64,000 bases of DNA from Vulcanimicrobiota bacterium (GTDB taxonomy: Bacteria > Vulcanimicrobiota > Vulcanimicrobiia > Vulcanimicrobiales > Vulcanimicrobiaceae). Within the stretch, counting starts at the first letter, position 1. Each line of letters starts with the position of its first letter. Below, one piece after another: positions 10,403 through 62,612 of this stretch. The translations under genes and the position numbers were made by a program. The notes beneath the pieces are model-generated. The model ran no database searches, had not been told where the DNA came from, and saw only the letters and a list, made by a program, of their open reading frames with translations. Location of the stretch: assembly GCA_003135555.1 (NCBI GenBank), contig PLCF01000085.1:184589-248588 (forward strand), in the 5' to 3' direction.

Positions 10403-11218
10403 GTGGATTTGCAGCGCTCCCCGCTACTGACCGTGCTGATGCGCGTCTACAATGCCGAAGACCACGTCCACGAAGCCATCCGATCGGTACTCTTGCAAGG
10501 GTTCGTTGACTTCGAACTGCTGATCGTGGAGGGCGCGTCCTCTGACAGGTCGGGCGAGATCGTACGCTCCTTCAGCGATTACCGAATCCGCATCGTGCCG
10601 CAGACCGGGCTAGGGAAGAACGACGCATTGGCGTGCGGGCTCGCCGCCGCACGAGGGCTGTATCTGGCGATCCAAGACGCCGACGACCTCAGCCTGCCCA
10701 ACAGATTCGCGCGTCAGGTGTCTGCCCTTAACGGCGATGCCGATATGGTCATCGTCGGAAGCTGGGTATCCATCATCGAAAAGCGCGGGGCCGAAATCGG
10801 CGTGCGCACATACCCACTCGACGACGCAGCGATCCGCCGCGCTATGGCGTTGTACAATCCGTTCGCGCACTCGGCAGTGATGTTCCGACTGGCTCCTGCT
10901 CGCGCTTGCGGCGGCTACACCGACACGCAGGTCCTCGAGGACTACGACTTCTATCCGCGCCTGCTCGCATACGGAACGTGCGCGAACCTACCCGAGGTGC
11001 TGACGGCATACCGGTTGCACACCTACGCGACGGCACAGCACGTAAAGTTCATCCTCAAGGCGACGCTCGATACCAAGTGGAAGATGCACACCGTTTACGG
11101 CTATCGCTGGACCTTTCGAAGCGTTGCGGTATTCTGCTCGCAGTGGCTCATGCAGCTGCTGCCATCCCGTGTCGTCAACGTGCTCTTCCGCATCATTTTC
11201 ATCAAACGCCGAAGGTAA
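10403..11218 (+). CDS. Glycosyltransferase family 2
   Basis: VLMRVYN, QDADD (DxD), EDY. Confidence 0.9.
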   Translation: MDLQRSPLLTVLMRVYNAEDHVHEAIRSVLLQGFVDFELLIVEGASSDRSGEIVRSFSDYRIRIVPQTGLGKNDALACGLAAARGLYLAIQDADDLSLPNRFARQVSALNGDADMVIVGSWVSIIEKRGAEIGVRTYPLDDAAIRRAMALYNPFAHSAVMFRLAPARACGGYTDTQVLEDYDFYPRLLAYGTCANLPEVLTAYRLHTYATAQHVKFILKATLDTKWKMHTVYGYRWTFRSVAVFCSQWLMQLLPSRVVNVLFRIIFIKRRR

Positions 11219-11270: not shown

Positions 11271-12209
11271 GTGCGTTGCGTCGTAACGGGATGCGCTGGG
11301 TTCGTCGGAAGCACGCTAACCGACCGCCTCTTGCGCGATGGGCATTCAGTGGTCGGAATCGATAATATGTCGACTGGGCGCGAATCGTTTCTGATTTCCG
11401 CCCTGTCGTTGCCGGAGTTCACGTTTCGGCGTGCCGATGTCGTCGATCGCGCGTCGATCGAGCCGCTCTTTGTGGGCGCGGAGATCGTCTTCCATCTCGC
11501 TGCCAACGCCGACGTGCGCTTCGGTACGGACCATCCCACGAGGGACTTCGAGCAAAACGCGGTCGCGACGTTGAACGTTCTCGAAGCCATGCGAGCCAAC
11601 GGCGTCCCCAAGATCGCGTTCGCCTCGACGGGCTCGGTCTACGGTGAAGCCAGCCAGATCCCGACTCCCGAAAATGCTCTGATGCCGATCCAGACCTCGC
11701 TGTACGGGGCGTCGAAAGTCGCGGCGGAGGCTTTCATCGAGGCGTACTGTGAAGGATTCGGGATGCAAGCCTGGATCTTTCGATTCGTTTCGCTGCTTGG
11801 GGAGCGCTACACGCATGGCCACGTCGTCGACTTCGTGCGGCAGCTCCGCGAGCATCCCGAACGTCTCCATGTTCTCGGCGACGGATTGCAACGAAAATCA
11901 TACCTGTATGTCGGCGACTGCATCGACGCGATCGTAGTCGCTCTCGAGCGCGCAACAGCAAAGGTGAACGTGCTGAACTTAGGCGCGGATCAGTACTGCA
12001 CCGTTAACGACTCGATCGGCTGGATCTGCGAGCGCATGGGTGTCGACCCGGCCCGCACGTATTCGGGCGGCAAACGCGGGTGGATCGGCGACAATCCGTT
12101 CATCTTTCTCGATTGCGCGTCGATGCGCGCGCTAGGTTGGCGGCCAACGCGGTCGATTCAGGCAGCGGTGCATGGCACGGTCGACTACCTACTTGCGAAC
12201 GAGCAATGA
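11271..12209 (+). CDS. NAD-dependent nucleotide-sugar epimerase (GalE-like; candidate LmbM-type)
   Basis: VTGCAGFVGS, HLAANADVR, STGSVYG, YGASK; converges on the transaldolase operon. Confidence 0.88.
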   Translation: MRCVVTGCAGFVGSTLTDRLLRDGHSVVGIDNMSTGRESFLISALSLPEFTFRRADVVDRASIEPLFVGAEIVFHLAANADVRFGTDHPTRDFEQNAVATLNVLEAMRANGVPKIAFASTGSVYGEASQIPTPENALMPIQTSLYGASKVAAEAFIEAYCEGFGMQAWIFRFVSLLGERYTHGHVVDFVRQLREHPERLHVLGDGLQRKSYLYVGDCIDAIVVALERATAKVNVLNLGADQYCTVNDSIGWICERMGVDPARTYSGGKRGWIGDNPFIFLDCASMRALGWRPTRSIQAAVHGTVDYLLANEQ

Positions 12210-12219
12210 GGGGGTGGCT

Positions 12220-12963
12220 TCACAGCGAGAAGCCGGCCGCTTTCGCATCGTCGTGGAACATCCGCACGGTTTCGAGTGAATAGGCATCCAAGTCTTTGCC
12301 GACGTTGGAAAGCTTCTTGAGGATGTCGTTCGTCGCCGTGATGATGTGGCACCCCACGGTGTCGGCCTGAAACACGTTGAGAAGCTCTCTGGGGCTGGCC
12401 CAGATCAACTCAGCTTTCGGGCGGCTTGCCATCGCGGCGAGCGACCGCCGCACGTACGGAACCGGATCGCGCCCGGTGTCCGCGATGCGGCCGGCAAAGA
12501 GCGAGACGTACGCCGGCACGTCGGCTGCGAGTGCGGCAGTCACCTCGGAAACCTGCTCGACCGTCATGAGAGCCGTGACGTTCAACTTGATTCCAGCGGC
12601 CGAAAGGCGGCGCACGATCGGCGTCGCAGACGCACCTTTCGTATTCGTTACCGGGACCTTCACGTAGACGTTCTCACCCCATGACGCGATACGCGCGGCC
12701 TGGTGCTCCATCTCGTCGAAGTCGTCGGAGAACACCTCGAACGAAATCGGGCGGTCGGCGATCTTCTCGAGCACGCCGCGCGCGAAGGTTTCGTAGTCGG
12801 CGATCCCGGCTTTGCGCATGAGCGTGGGGTTCGTAGTGAACCCGGCAATGTAGGGCAGGGCGGCCATATCCAGCATGCCGGCCAGGTCCGCACCGTCGGC
12901 GAATAACTTTACCGACAGGGCCGCCACTGACGGCGCTGCAGTCAACTCATCGGGTGCTATCAT
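12220..12963 (-). CDS. Small transaldolase (MipB/TalC subfamily; candidate LmbR-like)
   Basis: KLFADGA, GFTTNPTL, ISFEV, YVKVP (Schiff-base Lys), NVTA, SLFAGRIAD. Confidence 0.92.
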   Translation of the reverse strand: MIAPDELTAAPSVAALSVKLFADGADLAGMLDMAALPYIAGFTTNPTLMRKAGIADYETFARGVLEKIADRPISFEVFSDDFDEMEHQAARIASWGENVYVKVPVTNTKGASATPIVRRLSAAGIKLNVTALMTVEQVSEVTAALAADVPAYVSLFAGRIADTGRDPVPYVRRSLAAMASRPKAELIWASPRELLNVFQADTVGCHIITATNDILKKLSNVGKDLDAYSLETVRMFHDDAKAAGFSL

Positions 12964-13507
12964 CGCAGATCCATCTCCAAGCCTCAGTGAGCGAGGCGAC
13001 GCCAGCGTCGTGGCCGACCGGGCTGCATTCGGCGTAGGAGCGTTCGATCCACACGGTCCGGCACCTCGCGCGCCGACCGGCTTCGATGTCGCTCCACCGG
13101 TCGCCGACCATGTACGACGCGTCGAGGTCGAGACCCAATTCGCGCGCCGCCCTGAGCAGCATGCCCGGCTTCGGTTTGCGGCACGCGCAGCCGTCTTGGT
13201 TGTCGTGAACGCACGTGTAGACGGCGTCAACGCCCACCGCGGCGCGGAGGCGTTCGTTGATCGCGTCGACGGCCGCGGCGGTCGTCGTGCCGCGGGCTAC
13301 GTCCGGCTGATTCGTGACGACGACGACCATAAACCCGCGGGCGCGCAAATCGGCGACGACGCGTGCCGCATCGGAATCGATCGCGAGCTCCTCGGGCACG
13401 GTGGGCGGGTACGGTTTGCCGTCGCGCACGACCGCGGCGTTCAGTACGCCGTCGCGATCGAAGAAGACCGCCGGCTTCAGCGCGGCGTCGTCGCGACCGA
13501 CTCCCAT
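12947..13507 (-). CDS. gmhB: HAD-IIIA heptose/octose bisphosphate phosphatase
   Basis: FFDRDGVLN, VTNQ, CxH...CxCRKPKPG, MVGDRWSD. Confidence 0.9.
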   Translation of the reverse strand: MGVGRDDAALKPAVFFDRDGVLNAAVVRDGKPYPPTVPEELAIDSDAARVVADLRARGFMVVVVTNQPDVARGTTTAAAVDAINERLRAAVGVDAVYTCVHDNQDGCACRKPKPGMLLRAARELGLDLDASYMVGDRWSDIEAGRRARCRTVWIERSYAECSPVGHDAGVASLTEAWRWICDDSTR

Positions 13508-14112
13508 TTCGTCGCGGCGGCCTTTAACAAGGGGTGCGTGACCAGCAGGTGCCAGACGACCGCTTGAAAAGCCTCAGCATGGGGCGTGACGTGCTCACCA
13601 TTGATGGTTGGAATGAGAACGCAGACATCCGCAACGGTCGCCGTGTAGCCGCCGTCACGGCCGACGATCCCCACGATCGTTGAGCCGACTTCGTGTGCGT
13701 ATTCGAGTGCGCGGACGAGGTTTGGGCTGACGTTACGCTCCAGGTCGCCGCCCCCGACCGAAAAAATGAGAATCGCATCGTCGGGCCGCAGGCGGCTCAC
13801 GCGCAGCCACTCCACGAAGACGGTGGCCCAGCCCTCGTCATTCGTGCGCGCCGTCAGTTCGGAGACGTTGTCGGTCGGAGCGTATGCCTCGAACCCAGCC
13901 AACTTGCGAAAATCATTCACGGCGTGCGATGCGTTACCGGCGCTCCCGCCGACACCGAGAATAAACAGGCGTCCGCCGCGCTCGCGAGCTGCGGCCAGCT
14001 TTACCGCCAGTGACTCGATCGCCGCCGCATCCAGCCCATCGATTACCTGGCGCGACTCGCGCAAGAACGACTCGCTGAAGCTCGTTGGTCGGGCGGAAGG
14101 GGCGGTAGTCAC
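13477..14112 (-). CDS. gmhA: SIS-domain phosphoheptose(-octose) isomerase
   Basis: GVGGSAGNASH, TARTNDEG, GRDGG, HAEAFQ. Confidence 0.85.
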   Translation of the reverse strand: MTTAPSARPTSFSESFLRESRQVIDGLDAAAIESLAVKLAAARERGGRLFILGVGGSAGNASHAVNDFRKLAGFEAYAPTDNVSELTARTNDEGWATVFVEWLRVSRLRPDDAILIFSVGGGDLERNVSPNLVRALEYAHEVGSTIVGIVGRDGGYTATVADVCVLIPTINGEHVTPHAEAFQAVVWHLLVTHPLLKAAATKWESVATTPR

Positions 14113-14810
14113 TTGTCGATCCTCATACGGCGTGCTGTTTCTTCAAGGCCTGTTGGCGAACCGATCTCAAAGGGCCGCGAGTCGACGACGTATGCCGTAA
14201 GCTCGTTATCGGCGATAAGACGCTGGTTCACGACCGTGAGATCGGCCGGCTGGCCCGGTGCCAGGGTCGCGAATGCATCGGCACTGAACGCGCTAAGGCC
14301 GGAGTCGACGTACTCGGCATCGGGCCAACGGACCTGCTTGTCATAGCGCGTCACCAGTCCGCCCGAGACCGACGCGTTTGGCGCGTCGGTTCCCGAACCT
14401 CGATAACGATAGACCGCCATGAGTCCGGCCCGCCCGGACGACTCGAAGGCGCGCACCACGTCCGAGTAGTCGACGGCATGGTACACATCTCCAAACGTTA
14501 CGAGGAAGCGGTCGCCCAACAGCGGCAAGGCAGCGCGAACAGCGCCCGCCGTGCCGAGCGGCACCTCGCCATCTGAGATGTACCTGACGTGGACTCCGAA
14601 CGCGGCGCCGTCGCCGGCATACTCTGCGATCATCTCACCAAGATAGCCGGTGAGCAGCACCACATCGCAGACGCCGCGCCGCCTGAGCGAGCGCAGCAGA
14701 GGGCCCAGAAACGGTTCGCCGTTGACGTCGATCAACGGCTTGGGGACCCGCAGCGTGTGCGGGCGCATGCGGATCCCAAGTCCTCCGCACAAGATTGCAA
14801 TCGGAAGCAC
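14109..14810 (-). CDS. hddC: Sugar-1-phosphate nucleotidyl(guanylyl)transferase
   Basis: ILCGGLGIRM..PKPL, PLGTAGA, FGD. Confidence 0.8.
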   Translation of the reverse strand: MLPIAILCGGLGIRMRPHTLRVPKPLIDVNGEPFLGPLLRSLRRRGVCDVVLLTGYLGEMIAEYAGDGAAFGVHVRYISDGEVPLGTAGAVRAALPLLGDRFLVTFGDVYHAVDYSDVVRAFESSGRAGLMAVYRYRGSGTDAPNASVSGGLVTRYDKQVRWPDAEYVDSGLSAFSADAFATLAPGQPADLTVVNQRLIADNELTAYVVDSRPFEIGSPTGLEETARRMRIDK

Positions 14811-14811
14811 G

Positions 14812-15795
14812 TCAGCTCATCGAAAGAACGGTCGTTCCCTGGGAATCGAAGTCGACCCGGACCTCGGGAAGTCCGGCTTCGCGCATCGCATGACGGAGCT
14901 GCGTCTTGTTCTCGGTGTAGAACAGAAGAAAGCCGCCGCCTCCGGCGCCGATCAGCTTGCCGCCGAGCGCTCCGTTCGCTCGCGCCAGCTGATACCAGCG
15001 GTCGATGCGCTCGTTCGTCATCCCCGCGGAGCGCACACGCTTGCGTTCCCAATGCTCGTGCATGATCCCGGCGAACATCCGCAGATCGCCGCCCTCGAGC
15101 GCAGCCAAGCTGCGCTGTCCGAGCTCCTTGACGTAGTGAAGGTCATCGATCATGCGGCGGTCCGTGTTCTTCGTGCGGTCGTCCTGATCTTTGAGGATCG
15201 CCGACGCCGAGCGCGTGTAGCCGGTGAAGAAGAGCATCATGCCGTCCTGCAGGTTATCGCGCGTTTCGGTGTCGATTCGAACGGCCTTGACGTTCACCGA
15301 TCCGTCGGGTGCGAAGTCCATCATGGTGATCCCGCCGTAGGCGGCGATGTACTGGTCCTGCTTGCCGATGGGCTCACCGAGCACGTCTATCTCGAGGTGA
15401 CAGGCCTCTTCAGCGAGCCGCGCCTTCGTGACGATCTCGTGGTTCATGGCGTGCAGTGCGCCGAGCAACGCCGTCGTAAAGCTGCCGGAGGAGCCCAGCC
15501 CCGTGCCCGCCGGGATGTCGGACATGCTAGCGATCTCCAGCGAGGTGACCGGCGTTCCCGTGAGACGCAGTGCTTCGCGAATGATCGGATGGGCGATCTC
15601 CTCGACCGCCGTGACACGTTCCATTCGGGAGTATTTAATGATGCACTCTTCTACGAACGTGCGGTGCAGCGTGATGTACACATACTTGTCGATCGCGGCG
15701 GCGACCAGAAATCCGCCGTGCTCGCGGTAGTACGACGGCAGGTCGGTGCCGCCGCCGCCGAGCGAGATGCGCAGCGGCGAACGAACGATGATCAT
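14812..15795 (-). CDS. hddA: GHMP-family sugar-phosphate anomeric kinase
   Basis: PLRISLGGGGTD, PAGTGLGSSG, GKQDQY, GAGGGGF. Confidence 0.9.
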   Translation of the reverse strand: MIIVRSPLRISLGGGGTDLPSYYREHGGFLVAAAIDKYVYITLHRTFVEECIIKYSRMERVTAVEEIAHPIIREALRLTGTPVTSLEIASMSDIPAGTGLGSSGSFTTALLGALHAMNHEIVTKARLAEEACHLEIDVLGEPIGKQDQYIAAYGGITMMDFAPDGSVNVKAVRIDTETRDNLQDGMMLFFTGYTRSASAILKDQDDRTKNTDRRMIDDLHYVKELGQRSLAALEGGDLRMFAGIMHEHWERKRVRSAGMTNERIDRWYQLARANGALGGKLIGAGGGGFLLFYTENKTQLRHAMREAGLPEVRVDFDSQGTTVLSMS

Positions 15796-16784
15796 GCGCG
15801 ACCTTCCATTGCGTACACCTGTTCAACGATCGCCAGCGCTGCGGCCGCGTCCTCGAAATTCGGCTGGGGCTCCCGGTCGAGGGCGATGTCGTCGAGAAAC
15901 GCCTGGTACTCCGCGGCCCAGGAGTCGTCTCCCATGGGGTACTCGTAGATCGTAGTCGGCGGCGGACCAAGTTGGGGCGTCATCGCATAGTACGAAAGGC
16001 GCTCGACGCCGTAGCTGCCGCCCAGGCCGCCGATCTCGAGCTTCCCGGTACGCCCGAAAATCTCGAACGAGAACAGATTCTTCCATTCAGTCCACGACGC
16101 GTGCAGCGAGGCGACCTGGCCGCGCGGCGTACGCAGCAGAAAGAACGCGTTGTCTTCGACCGGAGCGGCCCAGAAGTACGTCGGAACGGCGCCCGCGACG
16201 ACGCTGAAATCGCCGAGGAACCACCGTGCGAGGTCGACCAAGTGCATCCCCTGATCGATTGCCTCGCCGCCGCCCGAGACCTCGGGGACGAAGCGCCACT
16301 CTTTCTCGTAGCCAAGCCGACCGCCGTGGCCATAGCGGCCGCGGACGTGCGTGAGCTCGCCGATGCCGCCGCGGTCGACGATCTCGCGCGCTTGCCGAAA
16401 CGCCGGATGGTAGCGGTGATTGAAGCCCACGCGGACCTTGGCTCGGCTACGCGCAACCGCGGCGCGGACCGCGCCGAGCTCGCCGCTGCGGCGCGCCGCC
16501 GGTTTCTCGACCAACACCTGTTTCCCGGCGTCCGCTGCGGCAGCGGTGATCTCCGCCAGGACGTCGTGCGGGGTCGCGACCACGACCAGATCGATGTCCA
16601 TGCGAGTGACGATCTTGCGCCAGTCGGACGCCGGCTCGGCGCCACACGCAGTCGCAAGCGCTGCTGCTCGCGATCCGTTCGAATCGCACACTGCGCGCAA
16701 GCTTCCGGGCGGCATCGCGCGCGCGCGCTTCTGACCGATCAGGCCACAGCCGACGATCGCGGCCCTCGGGATCACCAGCTCCAT
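15792..16784 (-). CDS. Gfo/Idh/MocA-family oxidoreductase (candidate LmbZ-like)
   Basis: VGCGLIG, VEKP, GFNHRYHP, GGG..DQGMH. Confidence 0.9.
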   Translation of the reverse strand: MELVIPRAAIVGCGLIGQKRARAMPPGSLRAVCDSNGSRAAALATACGAEPASDWRKIVTRMDIDLVVVATPHDVLAEITAAAADAGKQVLVEKPAARRSGELGAVRAAVARSRAKVRVGFNHRYHPAFRQAREIVDRGGIGELTHVRGRYGHGGRLGYEKEWRFVPEVSGGGEAIDQGMHLVDLARWFLGDFSVVAGAVPTYFWAAPVEDNAFFLLRTPRGQVASLHASWTEWKNLFSFEIFGRTGKLEIGGLGGSYGVERLSYYAMTPQLGPPPTTIYEYPMGDDSWAAEYQAFLDDIALDREPQPNFEDAAAALAIVEQVYAMEGRA

Positions 16785-17623
16785 CCTCGGTCTTCCGGGA
16801 CGATCCTGCGCAGCGTTAGAACGTCACCGTCGAGCTGCTCTCGCCGCGCCGGGAACGTTCGCCACGGGTCCCAGGGTGCGGACACGAGCTTCCCGGTAAT
16901 GCCGTCGGCGTCGCGCGAGGCGAGAAAGACGCACAGCTCGGCGCCCAGCGTGAGCGGCGTTCCGCCGCTCTCGCGCTGCTTGAGCGACGCCTCGTAGAAG
17001 GCGTCTCCGACGGTCGCGGGACCCGCTGCGAGCACTTCGTGCAGGAGCCGCGTATTGAGCGCGCCGGGCGCGACCATGTTGACGTCGATGCCGGCCTCGC
17101 GCAGCTCTTCGGCAAGCGTCTCGCCGTAGCGCACGACGCCGGCCTTGGAGGCCGCGTACGCACTCAGGAAAGGCAGCGGCTTTGTCGCCCCCCCGCCGGA
17201 GAGGATCACAATCTTTCCCCGCGCGCTCCGCCGCAGCGCCGGCAATGCGGCACGGGTACAGTAGACGGCGCCGAGCAGATTGATGTGGATCGCATCGACC
17301 CAGCCGCGCCAGTCGACGTCTTCGATCCCGCCCATCGGTCCGTAGATGCCGGCGTTCACGATCAGCGCGTCGAGGCCGCCGAACGCGCTGGTGACGGCGG
17401 CGACGAGCGCGTCGACGTCTTCCTCGCGCGACACATCGGCGACGCGCGCTTCGATCCGCACGCCGGGATGCTGCTCGCGCAACGCATTCGCGGCGCGCTC
17501 GAGGCCGGCCACCTCACGTGCGCAAATTGCGACATCCGCACCCGCCATGGCGAACGAGTCCGCAATCGCGAGGCCGATCCCCTGCGATGCGCCAGTAACT
17601 AGGACGCGCTGCGGTGCGCTCAC
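16772..17623 (-). CDS. Short-chain dehydrogenase/reductase (ketoreductase)
   Basis: VTGASQGIG, NAG, YAASK; GTG 17623 overlaps the upstream stop. Confidence 0.9.
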   Translation of the reverse strand: MSAPQRVLVTGASQGIGLAIADSFAMAGADVAICAREVAGLERAANALREQHPGVRIEARVADVSREEDVDALVAAVTSAFGGLDALIVNAGIYGPMGGIEDVDWRGWVDAIHINLLGAVYCTRAALPALRRSARGKIVILSGGGATKPLPFLSAYAASKAGVVRYGETLAEELREAGIDVNMVAPGALNTRLLHEVLAAGPATVGDAFYEASLKQRESGGTPLTLGAELCVFLASRDADGITGKLVSAPWDPWRTFPARREQLDGDVLTLRRIVPEDRGWSW

Positions 17624-18912
17624 TCGGACACTTCCGCGGCGCCCGCCCCGCGTCCGAACGCGACATACTGCAAGGCCGTCGTTGCGCCCAAGGACTCTTC
17701 GAGGAATCGTGCCTGGTCGACGACGATACGCCGGCGCATCATCTCGAACACCGCGGGCGGAATCTCCCGGAACGCCGGCCACCCCGTAGAGATAACCGCC
17801 GCGTCCGCGCCCGCCAAGGCTGCGGCGGCCGAGGGGACGAGCTCGGCGATTCCTGCGAGCCGCCCGTCGCCGGCCGCGATCGCCGGATCGTAGGCTACGA
17901 GCGCGACCCCATCGGCGCGCAGCCGGTGCGCCAGCGCGACCGCGTTCGACCCGCGCAGCGTGTCGGTGCCGGGTTTGTAGACGAGCCCAAGAAGTGCGAC
18001 ACGTGGCGAAGGCACATCGCGCAGTGCCTCGCGCACGCGCTCGTACGTCCAGTTCCGGTGCTGGGAGTTGCTTGCCGCAGTGGCTCGAATTTGTTGTACG
18101 GGCACCCCCGTGCGGCCGGCGAGCGCAGCGAGAAAAATCAGGTCGCGGGCCAGGGTCCCTCCGGCGAATGCCTCTCCGGCGCGAACATACGCCTTCGGGC
18201 CGATGCGAAGATCGCTCTTGAGGCCGCGCTCCACGTCGCGCGCATCGGCGTCGGTCCGCTCGCATATCGCCGCGAGCTCGTTCGCGAATACGACCGAAGT
18301 CGCCAGGAACGCATTTATCGCGTGCTTCGTCATCTCCGCCGACTCGACGTTCATGGCGACTATCGCCGGCGCGAACGCGCGTAGCGCGCGCTGTATCGTT
18401 TCGAGGGCACGTGGCTCGCGCGTGCCGACGACGAACCGGTCGGGCGAGCGGAAGTACGCGATCGCCGACCCCAGCCGCAAATTCTCCGGAACCGCGGCGA
18501 ACGCAAAGCGGCCGCCGAGCCGGTGCTCGAGCTCGGCGACGCTCCCGACGGGAAGCTGCGACGAGACGGCGACGACAGCGCCGCCCGGCAACGCGGAGAG
18601 CAGGTTCGTAGCGCGCTCGAGCACCCTATCCACGTCGGGCCGGTCGGCGTCGTCGATCGGCGTGTCATAGCAAATCCACACGAGCTCTGCATGTGCCGCC
18701 GCCTCCGCATCGGCGCGAAAGACGAGACGGCCCGCGGCGCTTTGCGCTGCGATGAGTTCGCCCAGTCCAGGTTCCTCGACCGGAAGGCGGCCGGCCTCGA
18801 TCTCCGCGACGACCTTTGGCTCGTCGAGCGCAACGACATCATGCCCCTCGGCGGCGAGGCACGCTGCGGTCACCGTCCCGAGGTGCCACAATCCGGCAAC
18901 GGCGATCTTCAC
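17620..18912 (-). CDS. UDP-glucose/GDP-mannose dehydrogenase-family protein lacking the catalytic Cys (candidate LmbL-like)
   Basis: PENLRLG, AEMTKHAINAFLA, LGLVYKPGTDTLR; FAGGTLARD where GGSCFPKD is canonical. Confidence 0.88.
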   Translation of the reverse strand: MKIAVAGLWHLGTVTAACLAAEGHDVVALDEPKVVAEIEAGRLPVEEPGLGELIAAQSAAGRLVFRADAEAAAHAELVWICYDTPIDDADRPDVDRVLERATNLLSALPGGAVVAVSSQLPVGSVAELEHRLGGRFAFAAVPENLRLGSAIAYFRSPDRFVVGTREPRALETIQRALRAFAPAIVAMNVESAEMTKHAINAFLATSVVFANELAAICERTDADARDVERGLKSDLRIGPKAYVRAGEAFAGGTLARDLIFLAALAGRTGVPVQQIRATAASNSQHRNWTYERVREALRDVPSPRVALLGLVYKPGTDTLRGSNAVALAHRLRADGVALVAYDPAIAAGDGRLAGIAELVPSAAAALAGADAAVISTGWPAFREIPPAVFEMMRRRIVVDQARFLEESLGATTALQYVAFGRGAGAAEVSE

Positions 18913-19622
18913 TCGGGCTTCCGGAAAGCGATCGTGATGAAATGCGCGTGCGTCGCGTCGAGGCGGCCGACGCTCGGAGGCAGTGGATGATAGCCCGCCC
19001 CGAGCGCGCGAACGAGTTGCAGCCCGTGCAGCGTGCCGAGTTCGATCAGGCCCCGCAAACTGAAGATGCGATGGTGCTGCATCGGAAACGGCCAGCCTTC
19101 GTCACCGCGTCGAAGGGCGAGCGGATTCCCGACGCCGGCTGCCAGGCCGCTGACATTGGTCAGAGAGAACGCTTGCCAGCCAAGCACAAGCGCGCCGATG
19201 TTGTGCCAGCTCGAGGCGTTCTCGGTCGAGACGATGACGAGGCCGCCCGGCTTCGCGATCCGAGCGTTCTCTGCGACGAAGAGGTCCGTGTCGTAAAGGT
19301 GTTCGATCACTTGATTGCTCACGACGAGGTCGAAGCTGTCCGCGGGAAACGGCAGGTGCGCGTTGAGGTCCGCTTCCGCGACGGTGAACCCGCGCCCGGT
19401 CGCTGCGCGCACGTGCGGATCGAAGACTTCGACGACCGACACGGACTCAGGCTCGAGGTCACGGGCGAGACGCACGGTGAGCGCTCCGTCACCGCAGCCG
19501 AGATCGACCATCGTCCCGCCCCGGCGAAACCCCGCTGTTTTGGCGAGCTCGGCGATGTTCCGCTCGTTGAGGGCGATCGCCTCATCCATTAGCCGCAGTC
19601 CCCAGGTCTTGAAGTTATGCAC
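18909..19622 (-). CDS. Class I SAM-dependent methyltransferase
   Basis: VDLGCGDG, LPFPADSFDLV, VIEHL, KPGG. Confidence 0.88.
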   Translation of the reverse strand: MHNFKTWGLRLMDEAIALNERNIAELAKTAGFRRGGTMVDLGCGDGALTVRLARDLEPESVSVVEVFDPHVRAATGRGFTVAEADLNAHLPFPADSFDLVVSNQVIEHLYDTDLFVAENARIAKPGGLVIVSTENASSWHNIGALVLGWQAFSLTNVSGLAAGVGNPLALRRGDEGWPFPMQHHRIFSLRGLIELGTLHGLQLVRALGAGYHPLPPSVGRLDATHAHFITIAFRKPE

Positions 19623-19901: not shown

Positions 19902-20744
19902 ATGCCGCCGACCCCTGGGCGCTCTCAGCCTCGCGTTACGATTCCGCCCGCGACGAGCGTATATGGAAACGTCGAACAGCACGCAGCCGCAGGCGACGGC
20001 GGCCTGCCGGCGCCAAGCGCCCGCCACAGCACAACGGCCGGCTCGGCCCACCCCCCGAAACCGTTTGCCGACCTTGCCATCGTTATCCCCGCATATGGCG
20101 AGGAGGGCAGCATCCGGGACGTCGTTGCCTCCCTTCGGGAATTCAACCCCGATGCCGTGGTCGTGGTCGTCGACGACGGATCGCGGGACGCGACTGCGGA
20201 CGCCGCGTTTGATGCGGGCGCGTTCGTGCTGCGGCATCCGATCAACCTTGGACAAGGAGCAGCGCTCCACACCGGCATCCGGTACGCCGTTCGGCGCGGA
20301 GCATCGATTGTCTGTACCTTCGACGCCGATGGTCAGCACGATCCTAGCTCGATACCCGCTATGCGCAGTCTACTGGACGATAGTCAAGCCGACGTCGTCC
20401 TGGGCTCGCGGTTCTTGGCCGAGAAACAATATGTCCCGCCGGTCCGGCGTGCGATGCTGAAAATGGCGCTTGCATTTACAAGGCTGCACACGGGTCTCGC
20501 GCTGACCGATACCCACAACGGTCTGCGGCTGATGCGCGCCCACGCGGCGCTGCTGATGCTGCCGCGTCAGGCCGGGATGGCGCACGCGTCGGAAATGCTC
20601 GACCTCATTGCGACCCACCGGCTCCGGTATGTCGAGATTCCGAGCGAGGTCAAGTATACCGGGTATTCGATGCGGAAGGGACAGCGCTCGTTCAACGCTG
20701 TGAAGATCATCTTCGAACTCGCGTACCGGCGCCTCACGAGGTAA
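19902..20744 (+). CDS. Polyprenol-phosphate glycosyltransferase (DPM1-like GT2); start uncertain
   Basis: VIPAYGE, VDDGSRD, HPINLGQG, FDADGQH, LGSRF, TDTHNGLR. Confidence 0.85.
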   Translation: MPPTPGRSQPRVTIPPATSVYGNVEQHAAAGDGGLPAPSARHSTTAGSAHPPKPFADLAIVIPAYGEEGSIRDVVASLREFNPDAVVVVVDDGSRDATADAAFDAGAFVLRHPINLGQGAALHTGIRYAVRRGASIVCTFDADGQHDPSSIPAMRSLLDDSQADVVLGSRFLAEKQYVPPVRRAMLKMALAFTRLHTGLALTDTHNGLRLMRAHAALLMLPRQAGMAHASEMLDLIATHRLRYVEIPSEVKYTGYSMRKGQRSFNAVKIIFELAYRRLTR

Positions 20745-20748
20745 CGCG

Positions 20749-21117
20749 ATGATCGTAAGCGTGCTCGTACTCTGCTTCATCATCATCGCGATCTACGTAG
20801 GAAGCCATCGGCTCAACGGCGTGCAGACGATCGCGGTGATTCTGTTCTTTCTCGTCGGTGTCGTGGTCGTCGTGTTCCCTACCGTCGCCGCCGGCATTGC
20901 CGAGCATCTTGGCGTAGGCCGCGGGGTCGATCTCGTCCTGTACCTCAGCGTCGTGGGCGGCTTGTTCGTCGCTGCGAACTTCTATTTCCGCATCAAGAGC
21001 CAAGAGGACATGCTCGGTACAATGGCGCGCGAGATCGCGCTGATGGCGCCGCGGGAGCACACGGTCCATGCCGCGCCGCCCGCGGGCGACAGGCCGGCGC
21101 CCGAAGCATCCAGTTGA
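20749..21117 (+). CDS. DUF2304-like small membrane partner of the GT2
   Basis: Three hydrophobic segments, LGVGRGVDLVLY motif, C-terminal REIAL; directly after a DPM1-like GT2. Confidence 0.8.
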   Translation: MIVSVLVLCFIIIAIYVGSHRLNGVQTIAVILFFLVGVVVVVFPTVAAGIAEHLGVGRGVDLVLYLSVVGGLFVAANFYFRIKSQEDMLGTMAREIALMAPREHTVHAAPPAGDRPAPEASS

Positions 21118-21121
21118 GCAT

Positions 21122-23233
21122 TTAGTCCACGACTTTGAGGAGCTCGACGGTCGTGCGTGTTCCGGGCTGCAGCTGTTCGGTGACGAGCCTCAGGTGCTTC
21201 CACAGTGGAGTAGCGCGCATTCCGCCAAGAGCCTCCTTCCAAACGACGACATACGTGCAGCCGGCATCACTGAGTCGCGCGTACGCATCCGGCGACGCCA
21301 GAGTCCATTCGTTGAGCGCTGCTGGGCCACCGTAGTTTGTTCCATTGAAGATCTCGGTCTGGCTGTACATGTTCATGAACTGCAGGTTGACGGCGTCGTA
21401 GATTTTGTCGCGCTGCGGGTCCAAGTGAGCGTTCGCGTACTCCAATATCGGCGCATCTTGCAACATGATCCCGCGCTCTGGCAGATTCTCATAGAGGTAT
21501 GCAAAATTCAGGTACTGGGTGCCCATTACGGCCGGCGATGTCGCCCCGCGCTGGAGCCGCGTCACCAGCCCGTTTCCGAGTGCAGAGAAGATCAGAATGG
21601 ACGCGATGAGGCCCACCTGCGCTAGGCGCGCCCCGCGCCAATCCTGGCCGAGTACGGCGTACCCTATCAAGAGGGCGACAACCGGAAGCGCGGTTTCAAG
21701 GTAACGAAACTCGACGGCGCCGCTGACGAGGACGAGCGCCGTAAACCACGCGGCGAAAGCGGATATCGGACGGATCACCTCCGTGCCCCGCCGCGCGAAG
21801 AACGGCAGGGCGGCCCAAATTGGCAGAAGCGCCAGCCAAAGGGGGCCTGGAAGGTCGCGGAACTTCAACGGGTCCATCGTCATCGCCCAAGGCAGCGAGA
21901 CGAGGTTGGCCGGATCGAGCGTCTCCATGAGTCGCCCACTGAAGGTGTTCGAAACATTCGCGCCCATTGTCGCCGCACCGTACTGAGAATGGAAAATTCC
22001 CGGCGCAAGCGGAAAAATCGGATCCCCGATCATCCATTGAGCCGTAACGAGCGCAGGAGCGGCAGCCAGCAGCGCGCAACCCGCATACGACAAGAGCTGC
22101 GCCAGCAGAGCCCTTCTCGGCGCCTGCCGCCTTTGCAGGACACGCAAGGCAACAATTCCGAGCGCGATCACGGCGAACGCGCCGAACGTCTTGATACCGT
22201 AGGTAATCCCCAGAAAAAATCCGGCGCCGCCCAATGCAAGCTTCGACTCCGTGCGTTGCCACGAAAGATAGCAATGCAGCGCCAGGATGACGAATGGAAC
22301 AGCCCCGAGGTCGTTCTTCGCGGTCGTCGCAGACCACGCGACAACGGGTGAAGCGAAGAGGATTAGGGCAGCGGTCTCGCCGATCGCGCTCGACGAGAAC
22401 CACGCTCGGGAGAACGCGATCAGTGCCAGCACGGTCATAACCGCCCCGCCCCAAGCAATGAGCTTGGCACCAATGGCCCCGACGAGGACCCACTCGAACG
22501 CGTAAACCGTTTCTTGATAGTGCGGCAGTGCGAAGGCCCAGATGCGTTCCGACGCGACGAGATTGAAAAAGCCATGGTGCTGCGCGTACCGGAACGCCTC
22601 GGCAAGATGGTAATAGCGTGCGTCGAAGCCAACCTCGGGCGTGAGTGCGGCCAACAAGCTCACGTAGAGAGAAGCTGCCAGCAGTACCCAAATCAATGCA
22701 GTTAGGAGGCGCGGCACGCGGACGGTGTCCTTGAGCCGCGGCGCATTGCGCAGCCAGCGCCAGACGGAGAACGTCGAGAACGCGAACCCCCCGAGCAAGA
22801 GCGGAACTTCGAACCGCCGATGCAGCAGATGTAGGGTTGCGAGCAGATAGGCAACCGCGATGAGCACGGCTAGGCCGGCAACCATGCCGAATGCGATTCG
22901 GTCGAATGCGTCGCGAGCTGGAATGCGAAATGCGCGCAGCAATGCATCTCCGGGGCCGATCCCCGCACCGAATGTAAGGGCGAGTGCCGAGACGAGCACC
23001 GCATTGCGAGGGATGTGGGTCAGAATCAAACCGAGGTGCGAAAGGTCGGCCCAAACGGCGCTACGGATAGCCGGATCGTCAAACGCATAAACGTGGATGG
23101 CGATCACAACGGCCCAGATCGGCAACAGGGCCGCGCCGAAGACTGCGAATCGACCCCATCGGCTGTCCAATATCGGCGTTGCGTGCAGCGGCTCGTCGGG
23201 CTGCGGGCCGCCGCGGATACTCGGCGGGGCCAA
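21122..23233 (-). CDS. Multi-pass membrane GT-C-like glycosyltransferase (ArnT/PMT-like)
   Basis: More than 12 predicted TM segments, loop motif FDARYYH, KND, FRY, soluble C-terminal domain. Confidence 0.7.
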   Translation of the reverse strand: MAPPSIRGGPQPDEPLHATPILDSRWGRFAVFGAALLPIWAVVIAIHVYAFDDPAIRSAVWADLSHLGLILTHIPRNAVLVSALALTFGAGIGPGDALLRAFRIPARDAFDRIAFGMVAGLAVLIAVAYLLATLHLLHRRFEVPLLLGGFAFSTFSVWRWLRNAPRLKDTVRVPRLLTALIWVLLAASLYVSLLAALTPEVGFDARYYHLAEAFRYAQHHGFFNLVASERIWAFALPHYQETVYAFEWVLVGAIGAKLIAWGGAVMTVLALIAFSRAWFSSSAIGETAALILFASPVVAWSATTAKNDLGAVPFVILALHCYLSWQRTESKLALGGAGFFLGITYGIKTFGAFAVIALGIVALRVLQRRQAPRRALLAQLLSYAGCALLAAAPALVTAQWMIGDPIFPLAPGIFHSQYGAATMGANVSNTFSGRLMETLDPANLVSLPWAMTMDPLKFRDLPGPLWLALLPIWAALPFFARRGTEVIRPISAFAAWFTALVLVSGAVEFRYLETALPVVALLIGYAVLGQDWRGARLAQVGLIASILIFSALGNGLVTRLQRGATSPAVMGTQYLNFAYLYENLPERGIMLQDAPILEYANAHLDPQRDKIYDAVNLQFMNMYSQTEIFNGTNYGGPAALNEWTLASPDAYARLSDAGCTYVVVWKEALGGMRATPLWKHLRLVTEQLQPGTRTTVELLKVVD

Positions 23234-26224: not shown

Positions 26225-26290
26225 GGTCGCGCCTGCCGTACGGGCCTGCAGCGCGCGGGTCCTTCCGCGGTGTTTCGCGGGGAGGTAAGC

Positions 26291-27115: not shown

Positions 27116-27137
27116 CGGCGCGCCGGCCGAAGCGCTC

Positions 27138-38667: not shown

Positions 38668-39795
38668 TTACCCGCAGGCCGTGCGGCACAGCTCCGCGAC
38701 CCGCTCGATGGCCGCTAAGGAAAGGTCGGGCGAGCACGGCAGGCCCAGCGTCACCGCGGCGAGCGCGTCGGTCACGGGGAGCGGCAAGGACGGATATCCC
38801 GCGAAGGCGCGTTGCCGGGCGAGCCCATCGCCCCACCATCGGCGAGTCGCGATACCGTGTGACGCGAGGGCGTCTTCGACGGTCTCGAGGCGGGCGGTAG
38901 GCACTTCCACGATCGCCGTCGCGGACACCCACTCGGTGCCGTAGCCGGCCGCGAACCGGACCGCAGGAACGCTCTCGAACGCTGCCAGATAGGCGCGCGC
39001 AACGCGCTCGAACGCGGCCCGCGTCGCGGGCCACTCGTCCAGTGCCGCAAGACCGACCGCGGCCGAGTACTCCGGCAGCTTCGCGTTGATCGCCGCGCTG
39101 CGGGCTTCACGAGAGTCGACAAAGCCGAAGTTGAATCGCGCCCGAATGCGGTGGACGAGCGCCGCATCGGTACACGCGACGAAGGCTCCTTCGCCGATGC
39201 CGAGCACCTTGGTCGCGTGCAGGCTCACCACCGTGGGAACCGGCGAGGCGCGCACGACGTCGAAGGCGGCCGCGGCGTCGAGCACCACCGGCAAGCCGGT
39301 GACCCGCGTGAACGCATCCCACTCCGCGGTAGCGACCGGGCTCCCGAACGGGGAGACAGCGACAATCGCACCCAACGGTCGTGGTGCTGCAGCTGCGAAT
39401 CGCGAGGCCGCCGCGGCGCGCAGCATCCCGTCTGCATCGACGTCAACGAGCCACGGCACGAGCCCTGCGCCGACAATGGCGTGGCCCGAAGCGGCAAACG
39501 TCCAGGCCGGAACCATGCAGAGACTCCCGGCCGGGATCCCCAGCGCCATCAGCGTTGCGGTGAGCGCCGCGGTTGCGTTGGAGGCGACTGCGACCTGCTC
39601 GTCATCGTGCGCCTGAACGTGCGCAGCGAGGCGCGCCTCGAAACGGCGTGCCAGCGGGCCGTGATTCGAGTACCAGCGGGATGCATCGATCTCGCGCAGG
39701 TAGGGCAGAATCTCGCCGGCCGGCGGCAGCCTCGGCTTGCACACGGGCACGCTGACTTCGCCTGCGCTTGCCGTCCAGGCGCGAGGGCGCTTCAC
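38668..39795 (-). CDS. DegT/DnrJ/EryC1/StrS PLP-dependent sugar aminotransferase
   Basis: PAWTFAAS, DAAAAF, SLHATKVLGIGEG (PLP Lys), NAKL. Confidence 0.9.
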   Translation of the reverse strand: MKRPRAWTASAGEVSVPVCKPRLPPAGEILPYLREIDASRWYSNHGPLARRFEARLAAHVQAHDDEQVAVASNATAALTATLMALGIPAGSLCMVPAWTFAASGHAIVGAGLVPWLVDVDADGMLRAAAASRFAAAAPRPLGAIVAVSPFGSPVATAEWDAFTRVTGLPVVLDAAAAFDVVRASPVPTVVSLHATKVLGIGEGAFVACTDAALVHRIRARFNFGFVDSREARSAAINAKLPEYSAAVGLAALDEWPATRAAFERVARAYLAAFESVPAVRFAAGYGTEWVSATAIVEVPTARLETVEDALASHGIATRRWWGDGLARQRAFAGYPSLPLPVTDALAAVTLGLPCSPDLSLAAIERVAELCRTACG

Positions 39796-44862: not shown

Positions 44863-44888
44863 GGTCATCCTCTTTGAAAACATTGGCT

Positions 44889-44952
44889 TTGGGAAAGTGG
44901 GCAACCTAAGGGGGGCCTGACTTCGTTTGCCGAGCCCTGACGCCTTCCGCTC
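44889..44952 (-). promoter_or_regulatory. Conserved 64-bp upstream element, copy 1
   Basis: Ungapped match to 46030-46093 and 47174-47237. Confidence 0.7.
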
Positions 44953-45001
44953 CCGCTGACACCCTGGGCTGGGGTAGCGCACGACCGCTCGGTGGGTGGG
45001 C

Positions 45002-60150: not shown

Positions 60151-61134
60151 GGTGCGTTCGCGCAGGCCGAGCTCCGCGCGCGCGCGTGCCGTCGACGGGA
60201 CGTAGCGATGGGCCGGCCCCGATGCCTCCGCTGGGCCGCGGATCTCGATCTGCGGACTGCGGCCCGAGGCGCTGGCCACGGCTTGGGCGAGCTCGACGAC
60301 CGATACGCCGTGTTCCGAACCGACGTTGTAGGCGCGACCTGCCGAACCTCGGGCCAGGATTCGCCACAGCCACGTCGTCAAGTCCGCGGCGTAGAGATAA
60401 GACCTGACCGCGTTTCCGCTGCCGCTCACCACGATCGGCCCCGACCCGATTGCGTCGCGGATGAAGTTCCCGACGGCGAAGTGCGTGTCGATCGGAAGAT
60501 ACGGCCCCACGAAGGTGAAGAGGCGCGCGACCTTCACGGCCGGCCCGCCTGACGCGGCTGCGATCGCGCCGAGCAGTTCGGCGCAGCGCTTCCCTTCGTG
60601 ATAGGCCTCGCGCGGTTGGAGCGGATCCGGGCCGCCGCCGTATTCCTCGCCGACATGTGAGAGATCGGCCGGCTGGCGGCCGTAGACGGCGCCCGAGCTG
60701 GTGAACAGAAATGGAATCGCGCCGCTGCGCGCCGCGACGGCGAGGGTCGCACGCTGACCGGCCACGATCGTGTCGATCATCTCGGCGGGCCGGCTCTCGT
60801 TGAGCGCCGCGCTGGCCGGCGTTGCGGCATGCAAGACCGCGTCGTACGTTCCACGGTCGGGCGCCGCGTCGCGGACGTCACCGCGAATCAGCGTGACCCC
60901 CGGCGCGTTCGCGATGGCCGGCGAACGGCGCGCAAATGCGTCCGGGTCACGGGTCAGCACGTCGAGGCGGATCGACGTCGCGAGATGGTTGTTTGCGTGC
61001 ACGGCCGATGCCAGAAACCAGGTGCCGACGAACCCGGTTCCACCGGTGACGTAGAACCGCGTTCCGCGGAACACCGCGATGTCCGATTCGGCATCCTCGA
61101 CGACCTCGTCCAGGTCGGAGGCGAGCGAGATCAC
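60094..61134 (-). CDS. NAD-dependent epimerase/dehydratase (extended SDR)
   Basis: [31 protein letters not shown]. Confidence 0.88.
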
Positions 61135-62474
61135 TTCGAGACGTCGGCCGTAGCGGGAGCTTCCACGATCGCGCGAGCGATGAACTCGATCTCCGGGTCG
61201 CCGAGGCCCGGAAAGGTTCCAACCCAGAAAACGTCGTTCATGATCACGTCGGCGTTCACCAGTTCGCCGACGCTGCGATAGGCAACGTTCGCGTACGCGG
61301 GCTGATGCACGAGGTTGCCGGCGAAGACGAGCCGCGTTCCGATCTTGCGATCGGTAAGGCGCGCGACGAGCGTGTTGCGATCGATCGGCGCGCCCGGCAG
61401 GACGCGGATCGGAAAGCCGAACCACGACGACGATCCACCCTGCGCTTCGCCCGGAAGCCCCACCCATGGGACGTCGGAGAGCAGTCCGAAGAGCCGTTGC
61501 GCATTGCGCTTGCGGTCCGCGATGAAGCCGTCGATCTTCTCGAGCTGTGCGACGCCGACCGCGGCTTGCATGTCCGTCAGCTTGAGGTTGTAGCCGAGAT
61601 GGGTGTACGTGTACTTGTGGTCGTAGCCGTAGGGCAAATCGCCGAGCTGCCAGTCAAAGCGCTTGCCGCACGTGTTCTCCTTGCCCGGCGCACACCAGCA
61701 ATCGCGTCCCCAGTCGCGGAACGATTCCACGATCTTGCGGAGTTTCGGCGAGCGCATCAGCACCGCTCCGCCCTCGCCCATCGTCAGATGATGCGCCGGG
61801 TAGAAGCTGACGGTCGCGAGATCGCCGAAGGTCCCGACCTGCGCGCCGTTCCAGGTCGCTCCCACCGCGTCGCAGGTGTCCTCGATCATCCAGAGGTCGT
61901 GCCGGCGGCAAAAGTCGCGCAGCGCTTCGGGATCGTACGGATTCCCCAGCGTGTGCGCGAGGATGACGGCCTTGCTGCGGGGCGATATCGCGCGCTCGAA
62001 CTGCGTGAGATCGGCATTGTACGTCGTCAGCTCGCTGTCGACGAAGACCGGGATGCAGCCGGCTTGCACGATCGGGTTCACGGTGGTGGGAAAACCCGCC
62101 GCCGCCGTGATCACCTCATCCCCCGGGCGTAGCCGGCGTTCGCCCAGTTCCGGCGACGTCAGCGCCATCAAGGCGCACAGATTCGCCGACGACCCCGAGT
62201 TCACGAGGACGCACTCGCGCACGCCGAACCAGCTTGCAAACTCCTTCTCGAAGCGCGACGCGTAGCGACCGGCGGTCAGCCAGAAGTCGAGCGAGGCGTC
62301 GACGAGCGCCACCAGCTCGCGTTCGTCGAACGTTCGCCCGCTGACGGGGACGGCGTCCTCGTCGGGTCTGAAGCTGCGCTCCTCGTACGCCGCGCGGAAG
62401 TACGTCCGCGTGCGGGCGAGGATGTCGTTGCGAAGACGTTCGGCCTCGGAGCTGTTGCTCTTGTCGCGAAGCAT
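61131..62474 (-). CDS. rfbH: CDP-4-keto-6-deoxyglucose 3-dehydrase (E1, DdhC)
   Basis: [22 protein letters not shown] (His in place of Lys), WGRDCWC....NTC Fe-S motif, YDHKY. Confidence 0.95.
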
Positions 62475-62612
62475 CAGGTGAGTCGCGTGGTACCCGGGAG
62501 ATCGAGGGGGTCGAAGCCGTTCACGCGGCCGGTATTCTGCGGCCTCGTGCTGATCGCCCGCGCCGCCCCCCCGGGACTTCCGATGCCGCACGGCCAAAGT
62601 CACCCGCTAGCT

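Follow-up and report, generated by a model that had tools for sequence, protein, structure and literature searches.

The best described relatives of the gene set considered here belong to the GDP-octose pathway for the lincosamide sugar, encoded by Streptomyces lincolnensis (Lmb proteins) and S. caelestis (Ccb proteins). In the passage of PMC5854111 devoted to it, LmbR forms an octulose from ribose-5-phosphate and either fructose-6-phosphate or sedoheptulose-7-phosphate, and in the corresponding passage of PMC12945683, GDP-octose is converted to GDP-lincosamide by LmbM, LmbL, CcbZ, and CcbS. A second known route leads to GDP-D-glycero-alpha-D-manno-heptose and employs GmhA, HddA, GmhB, and HddC. 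The GDP-6-deoxy-heptose pathway of the DmhA/DmhB type involves a GDP-heptose 4,6-dehydratase and a 4-keto reductase. As for the octose pathway, the reaction of the CcbL/CcbZ-type pair requires a C8; the term 6,8-dehydration reportedly stems from Wang et al. 2020 (PNAS). A further system is the O-antigen region of Coxiella burnetii (around cbu0674-cbu0678). The portion of PMC5843353 that treats it lists two epimerases, a phosphoheptose isomerase, and a functionally uncharacterized, reversed nucleotidyltransferase/kinase, the last being required for full-length LPS.

How does the locus reported here compare? It lies in a window (the whole stretch of DNA analyzed) of 64,000 nucleotides from a Vulcanimicrobiota bacterium. 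The cassette shares eight of nine enzyme families with the lincosamide pathway, as well as derived residues in the L, N, and Z proteins, but has a short-chain dehydrogenase/reductase (SDR) in place of the aminotransferase, a transaldolase of another subfamily, and a kinase that stands apart from CcbP. It also lacks a carrier domain and CcbC, CcbD, CcbT, CcbV, and CcbQ and sits in a glycan island. With the GDP-manno-heptose pathway it has in common the logic of isomerase, GHMP kinase, HAD phosphatase, and nucleotidyltransferase, yet all four enzymes score far under the NCBIfam equivalog cutoffs, the isomerase differs in loop and clade, and there are additional transaldolase, L-type, Z-type, and SDR genes. 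The likeness to the Coxiella region, as far as the published excerpt goes, is one of annotation only (isomerase, epimerases, and nucleotidyltransferase/kinase); the Coxiella kinase is of the HldE type, whereas that of the cassette is a GHMP kinase, and the sugars reported for Coxiella are virenose and dihydrohydroxystreptose. One locus, L126, has a layout similar to the Coxiella region and includes a transaldolase, a Gfo protein, and a Cys-less UGD-like gene. Presumably, the Coxiella region also carries a transaldolase and a UGD-like gene; excerpts of the Coxiella literature contain no transaldolase annotation.

Layout and setting of the cassette

Positions 11271..18912 hold nine ORFs, all intact and all of the families proposed in a preliminary description of this DNA (Table 1). 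That description had also claimed a coupled operon with a convergent epimerase, and this is what is seen, with neighbors among the eight minus-strand genes overlapping or sitting 1 base apart. A methyltransferase gene extends the same run; no match to it was found beside the cassette in any other fetched locus (E 1e-12). The surroundings form a large glycan island with glycosyltransferases, rml genes, and an ABC-2 exporter, and glycan genes flank the cassette in other genomes as well as in this one, a Wzx-type flippase being the neighbor in a related locus. The genes from 19980 to 23233 possibly constitute a lipid-carrier route, which might handle the cassette sugar.

Table 1. Cassette genes and selected neighbors in the window
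Predicted product	Position	Strand	Length (aa)	Remarks
LmbL/CcbL-type UDPGDH-fold protein	17620..18912	-	430	
Classical SDR	16772..17623	-	283	SGGG and YxxxK motifs
CcbZ/LmbZ-type Gfo/Idh/MocA oxidoreductase	15792..16784	-	330	Without carrier domain
HddA-like GHMP sugar-phosphate 1-kinase	14812..15795	-	327	33% to CcbP
Sugar-1-phosphate nucleotidyltransferase	14109..14810	-	233	36% to CcbO; GTP presumed
CcbN/LmbN-type SIS isomerase	13477..14112	-	211	SV[GH]GG loop
HAD-IIIA bisphosphate phosphatase	12947..13507	-	~186	Start uncertain; 52% to CcbK
Transaldolase, TIGR02134 type	12220..12963	-	247	29% to CcbR
CcbM/LmbM-like NAD-dependent epimerase	11271..12209	+	312	Convergent; 40% to CcbM
Class I SAM methyltransferase	18909..19622	-		4-base overlap with UDPGDH-like gene; same run
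GT2 glycosyltransferase	10403..11218	+		Directly upstream of epimerase; candidate sugar user
PpgS-like GT2	19980..20744	+		Part of possible lipid-carrier route
DUF2304 protein	20749..21117	+		Part of possible lipid-carrier route
GT-C/PMT-like membrane protein	21122..23233	-		Part of possible lipid-carrier route
DegT-type aminotransferase	38668..39795			
DegT-type aminotransferase	61131..62603			

Relationship to the lincosamide enzymes

The proteins compared were those of the celesticetin (ccb) cluster plus LmbL, the Ccb proteins standing in for the other Lmb proteins. (A published lmbN primer, scanned across the species-genome collection, gave 10 unrelated matches, with S. lincolnensis not among them.) For CcbK, L, M, N, O, P, R, and Z, the best match in the entire genome falls in the cassette, at identities of 29 to 52%. 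The cassette contains no aminotransferase and has the SDR instead; CcbS finds its best match on another contig (39%), and the DegT-type protein at 61131-62603 reaches only 30%. A family-for-family correspondence had been proposed for the whole set. It stands for L and N, which group with their counterparts in phylogenies, and for Z, by shared motifs; the epimerase falls in one well-supported group with CcbM. It does not stand for the transaldolase and the kinase. For L, N, and Z, and probably for the epimerase, the link to the lincosamide enzymes is thus closer than the family level.

The UDPGDH-like protein is 39% identical to CcbL and 37% to LmbL. Thr253 occupies the position of the catalytic Cys, and the NAD motif GxGYVG reads GLWHLG, so that both marks of a canonical UDP-glucose 6-dehydrogenase (the Cys of GGSCFPKD and GxGYVG) are absent. 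Seven substitutions are common to this protein and CcbL (G9W, Y10H, G83D, T119Q, F144N, C253T, and K256R); six of them occur in 117/117 aligned homologues and the remaining one, D83, in 116, while canonical rows have them in 0/17. The subfamily marks WH, D83, Q119, PENL, and TL.RD were defined here from this alignment, and LmbL also carries WH, PENL, and TL.RD. In a tree, the 30 rows without the Cys, among them LmbL and CcbL, separate from the 10 canonical ones with an SH-aLRT of 100; the window protein belongs to a subgroup that is sister to the LmbL group, outside the LmbL group proper. Judged by its derived residues and its grouping apart from canonical Ugd, it is a member of the LmbL/CcbL subfamily. 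The fold is that of UGD (TM 0.90 to BceC). Like the UDP-glucose/GDP-mannose 6-dehydrogenases BceC, UgdG, and E. coli Ugd, the protein has three domains and retains Glu143, Lys196, Asn200, and Asp257, but unlike them it is without the catalytic Cys, the Gly and Tyr of the NAD motif, Thr119, and Lys256. The protein is therefore unlikely to oxidize its substrate in two steps to a uronic acid.

The isomerase has, in common with CcbN, an SV[GH]GG loop and an insertion where GmhA has STSGN; it does not show the GmhA combination of this loop with a Glu at the metal site. An unrooted tree separates the isomerases of the cassettes and the lincosamide clusters from 12 others (GmhA, DiaA, and further isomerases) with support of 99/98, and the cassette enzyme is by these marks of the CcbN type. 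Matches of TAL effectors to the SIS protein were rejected as chance. The Gfo protein, 38% identical to CcbZ, shares with it motifs that are missing from 22 outgroup Gfo proteins; tree support for the grouping is only 92, and it is the motifs that assign the protein to the CcbZ type. The epimerase and CcbM fall in a 27-row group with support of 100, which also includes 4 rows from other loci. Support for grouping the phosphatase with CcbK is only 94, and that for the nucleotidyltransferase with CcbO only 93, with one other row inside.

Distribution and gene co-occurrence

Could the gene set be a chance assembly? It is not, because it recurs, rearranged, in other genomes: on plasmid 3 of Lawsonia intracellularis, in Rhizobium jaguaris, and at many other loci. 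The cassette is thus widespread, without restriction to this genome. The preliminary description saw an SDR where the lincosamide producers have an aminotransferase, and the same exchange is evident across loci. The SDR adjoins the UDPGDH-like gene in 18 of 20 non-Streptomyces loci and the aminotransferase in none of the 20, whereas in the Streptomyces loci the aminotransferase is beside it in six of six and the SDR in none of the six. Not one locus in either group has both. The transaldolase is similarly faithful to isomerases with the SV[GH]GG loop, which it adjoins in 22/22 loci.

Other members are less constant. A close relative of the epimerase is present in only 11 of the 20 loci, two loci (L168 and L169) have Gfo and SDR proteins that differ from the cassette types, and a five-gene core is frequently found without the L/Z/SDR trio. 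In close relatives, the epimerase gene lies directly upstream of the UDPGDH-like gene or is fused to it (P0022). A 741-aa Atlas cluster labeled "SDR + UGD" was considered as an SDR fusion and rejected, P0022, of equal length, being an epimerase fusion. A profile of the UDPGDH-like protein gave 519 to 625 bits for cassette members and 399 to 470 for lincosamide-type proteins; in 301 proteobacterial genomes it found no clear member, the matches being dominated by canonical Ugd (best, 388 bits).

The predicted sugar and its alternatives

What would such a cassette make? The route is best read as that of the lincosamide sugar, closing with a reduction rather than an amination. Starting from the genes, coupling, subfamily membership, and co-occurrence established here, we infer the carbon number, nucleotide, stereochemistry, receiving glycan, and every reaction of the pathway. 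An octose of some kind is the likely product, and, with somewhat less assurance, an NDP-8-deoxy-octose (probably GDP linked) for a surface glycan is the form we favor. The extra transaldolase would add a C3 unit from fructose-6-phosphate or sedoheptulose-7-phosphate to ribose-5-phosphate, giving octulose-8-phosphate, which the CcbN-type isomerase would turn into octose-8-phosphate. Kinase, phosphatase, and nucleotidyltransferase would then yield NDP-octose, and the CcbM-like epimerase and the CcbL/CcbZ-type pair a 6-oxo-8-deoxy intermediate. Within this pair, the Gfo protein may carry out NAD-dependent redox steps, and the UDPGDH-fold protein, in which the NAD motif is broken and the Cys missing, may promote loss of the C8 hydroxyl. 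The SDR, in the place of CcbS/LmbS, is the proposed C6-keto reductase. Finally, the neighboring GT2 would deliver the sugar to the surface, possibly via a lipid carrier and the GT-C protein or on an ABC-exported glycan. Judged by titles and abstracts, none of the papers returned by full-text searches describes the cassette or a deoxy-octose in surface glycans, and the searches brought up neither a product nor an enzyme assay or glycan structure for any cassette carrier.

Does the transaldolase really make an octulose? A modified GDP-heptose, with the transaldolase only boosting sedoheptulose-7-phosphate, is the foremost alternative, and we regard it as unlikely. On this reading, the Cys-less UDPGDH-fold protein would oxidize a secondary C6 hydroxyl, and the SDR, Gfo protein, and epimerase would set an unusual stereochemistry or strip a hydroxyl. 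The transaldolase itself speaks for the heptose: it scores 350 bits against TIGR02134 (cutoff, 282) and keeps the canonical Glu, Lys, and Phe, where CcbR has Gln and Trp in place of Glu and Phe, and it belongs to a TIGR02134 clade (support, 99) that excludes CcbR. Clade, active-site residues, and 29% identity all argue against its being a CcbR orthologue. Nested among the cassette transaldolases is one from a non-glycan operon on a Streptomyces plasmid. The cassette kinase groups with non-lincosamide kinases, and a single clade of cassette kinases with CcbP was rejected (p-AU 0.0015; LG+G4, 41 rows). For the kinase, the isomerase, and the phosphatase alike, the top NCBIfam label is that of a heptose enzyme, though below cutoff in each case, and absence of the Cys is compatible with any secondary alcohol at C6, be it of a heptose or an octose. 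Against the heptose, the isomerase groups with CcbN and not with GmhA-type enzymes, the transaldolase occurs in none of 12 loci having other isomerases, and CcbL- and CcbZ-type genes, whose joint reaction needs a C8, travel together. GmhA-like and GmhB-like genes, moreover, are present elsewhere in the genome (C21). The genome also has a second PF00923 gene (C31), making the cassette transaldolase an extra copy (an equally strong PF00923 match exists in four of four same-genus genomes searched), and a canonical Ugd (C58:159721); the presence of these ordinary genes elsewhere counts in favor of the octose.

Improbable, and more so than the heptose, is an octose other than the simple 8-deoxy form, namely a 6-amino, undehydrated epimer, or O-methylated sugar. 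Two DegT-type aminotransferase genes in the window, the methyltransferase coupled to the operon, and the frequency of the five-gene core on its own would suit such products, but the best CcbS match lies outside the window's contig, the SDR is kept in nearly all non-Streptomyces loci, and the methyltransferase in none examined. That the sugar is bound for a secreted lincosamide-type small molecule rather than the cell surface is highly improbable: where relatives of L, N, and Z have been characterized, they do all come from antibiotic clusters, but the thiol S-glycosyltransferase CcbT, the adenylation-domain protein CcbC, the condensation enzyme CcbD, and also CcbQ and CcbV are unmatched in this 84%-complete genome (E 1e-3), CcbF has a weak and partial match only, the Gfo and SIS proteins have no extra carrier domain, and the neighbors are glycosyltransferases, rml genes, and an ABC-2 exporter, with a Wzx-type flippase at the related locus.

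If the cassette does make an 8-deoxy-octose for surface glycans, a straight-chain aldo-octose would join the known building blocks of such glycans, and a large set of proteins currently labeled UDP-glucose dehydrogenase would gain a function. A wider reading can be offered tentatively, as a combination somewhat short of an even chance: many bacteria have a straight-chain 8-deoxy-octose in their surface glycans, the UDPGDH-fold protein is a cofactor-free dehydratase, and the lincomycin pathway derives from an envelope pathway, having arisen, just as tentatively, by exchange of the SDR for an aminotransferase. The lincosamide sugar pathway would in that case have a plausible source, the direction of the change being our supposition. 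On the same reading, the sugar would have been overlooked because an O-methyl-heptose has the same residue mass (206.08, by hand arithmetic). In Lawsonia intracellularis, a pig pathogen, the plasmid cassette may shape a surface antigen. The set of nine enzymes, together with Rhizobium jaguaris as a harmless carrier available in culture, makes a direct test of the octose idea possible.

The cassette and its glycan island

The nine cassette genes encode a UDPGDH-like (L-type) protein, an SDR, a Gfo/Idh/MocA (Z-type) oxidoreductase, a GHMP kinase, a nucleotidyltransferase, an SIS (N-type) isomerase, a HAD phosphatase, a transaldolase, and an M-like epimerase. All are intact and of the families named in the preliminary description, and the operon with a convergent epimerase claimed there is borne out: eight genes share the minus strand, with neighbors overlapping or one base apart. 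The epimerase belongs with them because it precedes the L-type gene in close relatives and, in P0022, a 741-aa protein, is fused to a UDPGDH-like protein that lacks the catalytic Cys ("Cys-less").

Features of the window
Feature	Position	Strand	Remark
Eight cassette genes	18912 -> 12220	-	
Epimerase	11271-12209		convergent with the eight genes
Methyltransferase	18909-19622		overlaps first of the eight genes
Nucleotidyltransferase	14109-14810		cassette gene
Sugar gene group	26270-31073		nucleotidyltransferase, acyltransferase, epimerase/dehydratase, C-methyltransferase, RmlC-like
Three beta-helix proteins	43918-47777	-	adjoining
D-lysine 5,6-aminomutase alpha subunit	47329-49008		beside beta-helix genes
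3-Dehydroquinate-synthase family	57633-59108	+	flanked by SDR and GT2

On contig C58 the cassette forms part of a glycan island about 95 kb long, which also contains rml genes, genes for GT2 and GT4 enzymes, numerous methyltransferases, a permease/ATPase pair of the ABC-2 type, a canonical Ugd, a Gmd-like gene, and a membrane protein resembling GT-C enzymes. Homologues that carry organism names indicate Eremiobacterota (Ca. Elarobacter, Ca. Velthaea). Elsewhere in the genome (84% complete) are a separate transaldolase on C31, with a counterpart matched in all four same-genus genomes searched, and GmhA-like and GmhB-like genes on C21. The cassette thus supplements housekeeping metabolism. The island also holds the 3-dehydroquinate-synthase-family gene, possibly a sugar-phosphate cyclase, and the sugar gene group in the table is probably a branched deoxysugar pathway.

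Kinship with the lincosamide proteins

In a Streptomyces-type genus sample of 401 genomes, the kinase was matched in 14, and 6 of these carry the K-L-M-N-Z-P-O-S-R set. One locus, L095, is the celesticetin (Ccb) cluster: PDB 7YN3 matches the carrier domain of its CcbZ exactly, its L protein has the same sequence as the record named CcbL, and the lengths tabulated for CcbN, Z, P, O, and T in supplement 1 of PMC4351081 agree with its own. Four others (L098-L101, from G486, G682, G515, and G417) add a CcbT-like glycosyltransferase (32-34%), with CcbC, D, F, Q, and V not matched within the 20 kb fetched; we take them to be lincosamine-type sugar clusters.

Eight Ccb proteins find their best genome-wide match in the cassette, namely CcbK (52% identity), M (40%), L (39%), Z (38%), O (36%), N (33%), P (33%), and R (29%). 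The best match of the aminotransferase CcbS lies on another contig.

The L-type protein keeps the UDPGDH fold (predicted structure, pLDDT 92; TM 0.90 to BceC) and retains Glu143, Lys196, Asn200, and Asp257. Seven positions set it apart from canonical enzymes: W9 (canonical G), H10 (Y), D83 (G/N), Q119 (T), N144 (F), T253 (C), and R256 (K). CcbL has all seven substitutions. Six of them occur in every one of 117 aligned homologues (the 119 nonself rows among the best 120 of 6712 matches, after 2 short rows were dropped) and D83 occurs in 116; they are absent from all 17 canonical rows. A database search with CcbL, which also returned the lincomycin protein LmbL (P0123), gave 72 Cys-less proteins among 77 matches, the 5 weakest being canonical. 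In a mixture-model tree, 30 Cys-less rows, LmbL and CcbL among them, part from 10 canonical rows (SH-aLRT 100), and the window protein falls in a sister subgroup outside the LmbL group. The canonical rows include L039, which the residue pattern had mislabelled. By sequence, then, it is a member of the LmbL/CcbL-type subfamily. A large metagenome group (P0127-P0182) is 46-54% identical to CcbL, and the seven members placed in the tree all fall within the LmbL/CcbL group.

The window isomerase and CcbN have in common an SV[GH]GG loop and an insertion, and cassette and lincosamide rows split from 12 others with support of 99/98 in an unrooted tree of 33 rows (a set of 46, thinned by 14, plus E. 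coli DiaA). The window Gfo protein and CcbZ share the motifs YG.G.R.GY..EW and [DE]QG.H, absent from 22 outgroup rows. Judged on these features, the N and Z proteins are of the same subfamilies as CcbN and CcbZ. Groupings of Gfo, HAD, and nucleotidyltransferase with Ccb reach a support of only 92-94.

The family-for-family match proposed earlier is partly supported: it extends to the subfamily for L, N, and Z but not for the kinase or transaldolase, which had been likened to LmbP and LmbR. A single clade of cassette kinases with CcbP was rejected (p-AU 0.0015; 41 of 52 rows used). The window transaldolase lies inside the TIGR02134 clade and CcbR outside it. The window enzyme has the usual Glu/Phe, CcbR has Gln/Trp there, and the L098-L101 enzymes also have Gln and Trp.

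Distribution and co-occurrence

The full set, rearranged, occurs on Lawsonia intracellularis plasmid 3, on a Rhizobium jaguaris plasmid, and in metagenome and viral-collection contigs. The L-type protein was matched in 15 of 151 genomes of the phylum (E 1e-60; 5 Cys-less, 10 canonical) and TIGR02134 in 5 of 301 proteobacterial genomes. A five-gene core (transaldolase, SIS, HAD, kinase, nucleotidyltransferase) is often present without the L/Z/SDR trio. Short UDPGDH-like proteins of about 220-330 aa (L173-L192, which are viral-collection contigs, and L042 and L043) have neither the C-terminal domain nor the Cys, and several adjoin an SDR or Gfo gene. Against its closest relatives the cassette nucleotidyltransferase is 45-47% identical, HAD 56%, and most other genes 66-84%; the nucleotidyltransferase may have been exchanged.

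Isomerases were present in 34 of 42 loci examined. Transaldolase accompanies all 22 with the SV[GH]GG loop and none of the 12 with other isomerases; 4 of the 22 are on contigs that a search with transaldolase had also reached, and related loci do not count as independent. Among 20 non-Streptomyces loci with a Cys-less protein, some short or near-duplicate, SDR is found in 18, Gfo in 15 (13 with the CcbZ motif), a close epimerase relative in only 11, and aminotransferase in none. Streptomyces loci reverse this (aminotransferase 6/6, SDR 0/6), upholding the idea that an SDR stands in place of the aminotransferase.

A candidate product

What sugar might the cassette make? Wang et al. (2020) reportedly took GDP-octose to GDP-lincosamide by 6-epimerization, 6,8-dehydration, 4-epimerization, and 6-transamination. 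The main argument for an octose is that L- and Z-type genes are retained jointly and 6,8-dehydration needs C8. The L-type protein would be the dehydratase and the Gfo protein its redox partner, as the former's degenerate NAD motif suggests. With a reductase replacing the aminotransferase, a C6 hydroxyl is predicted, and hence NDP-8-deoxy-octose, which we regard as the probable product. LmbM, LmbL, CcbZ, and CcbS carry out the GDP-octose to GDP-lincosamide conversion (PMC12945683), and LmbR joins F6P or S7P with ribose-5-P to give D-glycero-D-altro-octulose (PMC5854111).

A modified heptose, the earlier rival, is unlikely given the joint L/Z retention. On carbon number the transaldolase sequence is uninformative, because a transaldolase from a Streptomyces plasmid operon unrelated to glycans falls among the cassette copies. 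In two cassette loci (L033, L038) a TalC-like enzyme replaces the TIGR02134 type; the slot is therefore conserved, the family not. Another octose is less likely still. A secreted product is very improbable, and a glycan is favored over an antibiotic, because CcbC, D, Q, T, and V were not matched in the 84% complete genome. In its presumed working the cassette comes closest to the lincosamide octose sub-pathway, but it is no lincosamide cluster.

A full-text literature search (listings and abstract starts; subscription journals thinly covered) found no description of the cassette or of a surface-glycan deoxy-octose. The Coxiella O-antigen region is possibly related, a likeness drawn from its published annotation; it is required for full-length LPS (PMC5843353). 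A variant in L126 (6892-17879) and L149 resembles that region in layout, with E1 alpha/beta genes, SIS, transaldolase, epimerases, a 540-aa PfkB kinase, Gfo, and a UGD-like protein that reads GGNLERD.
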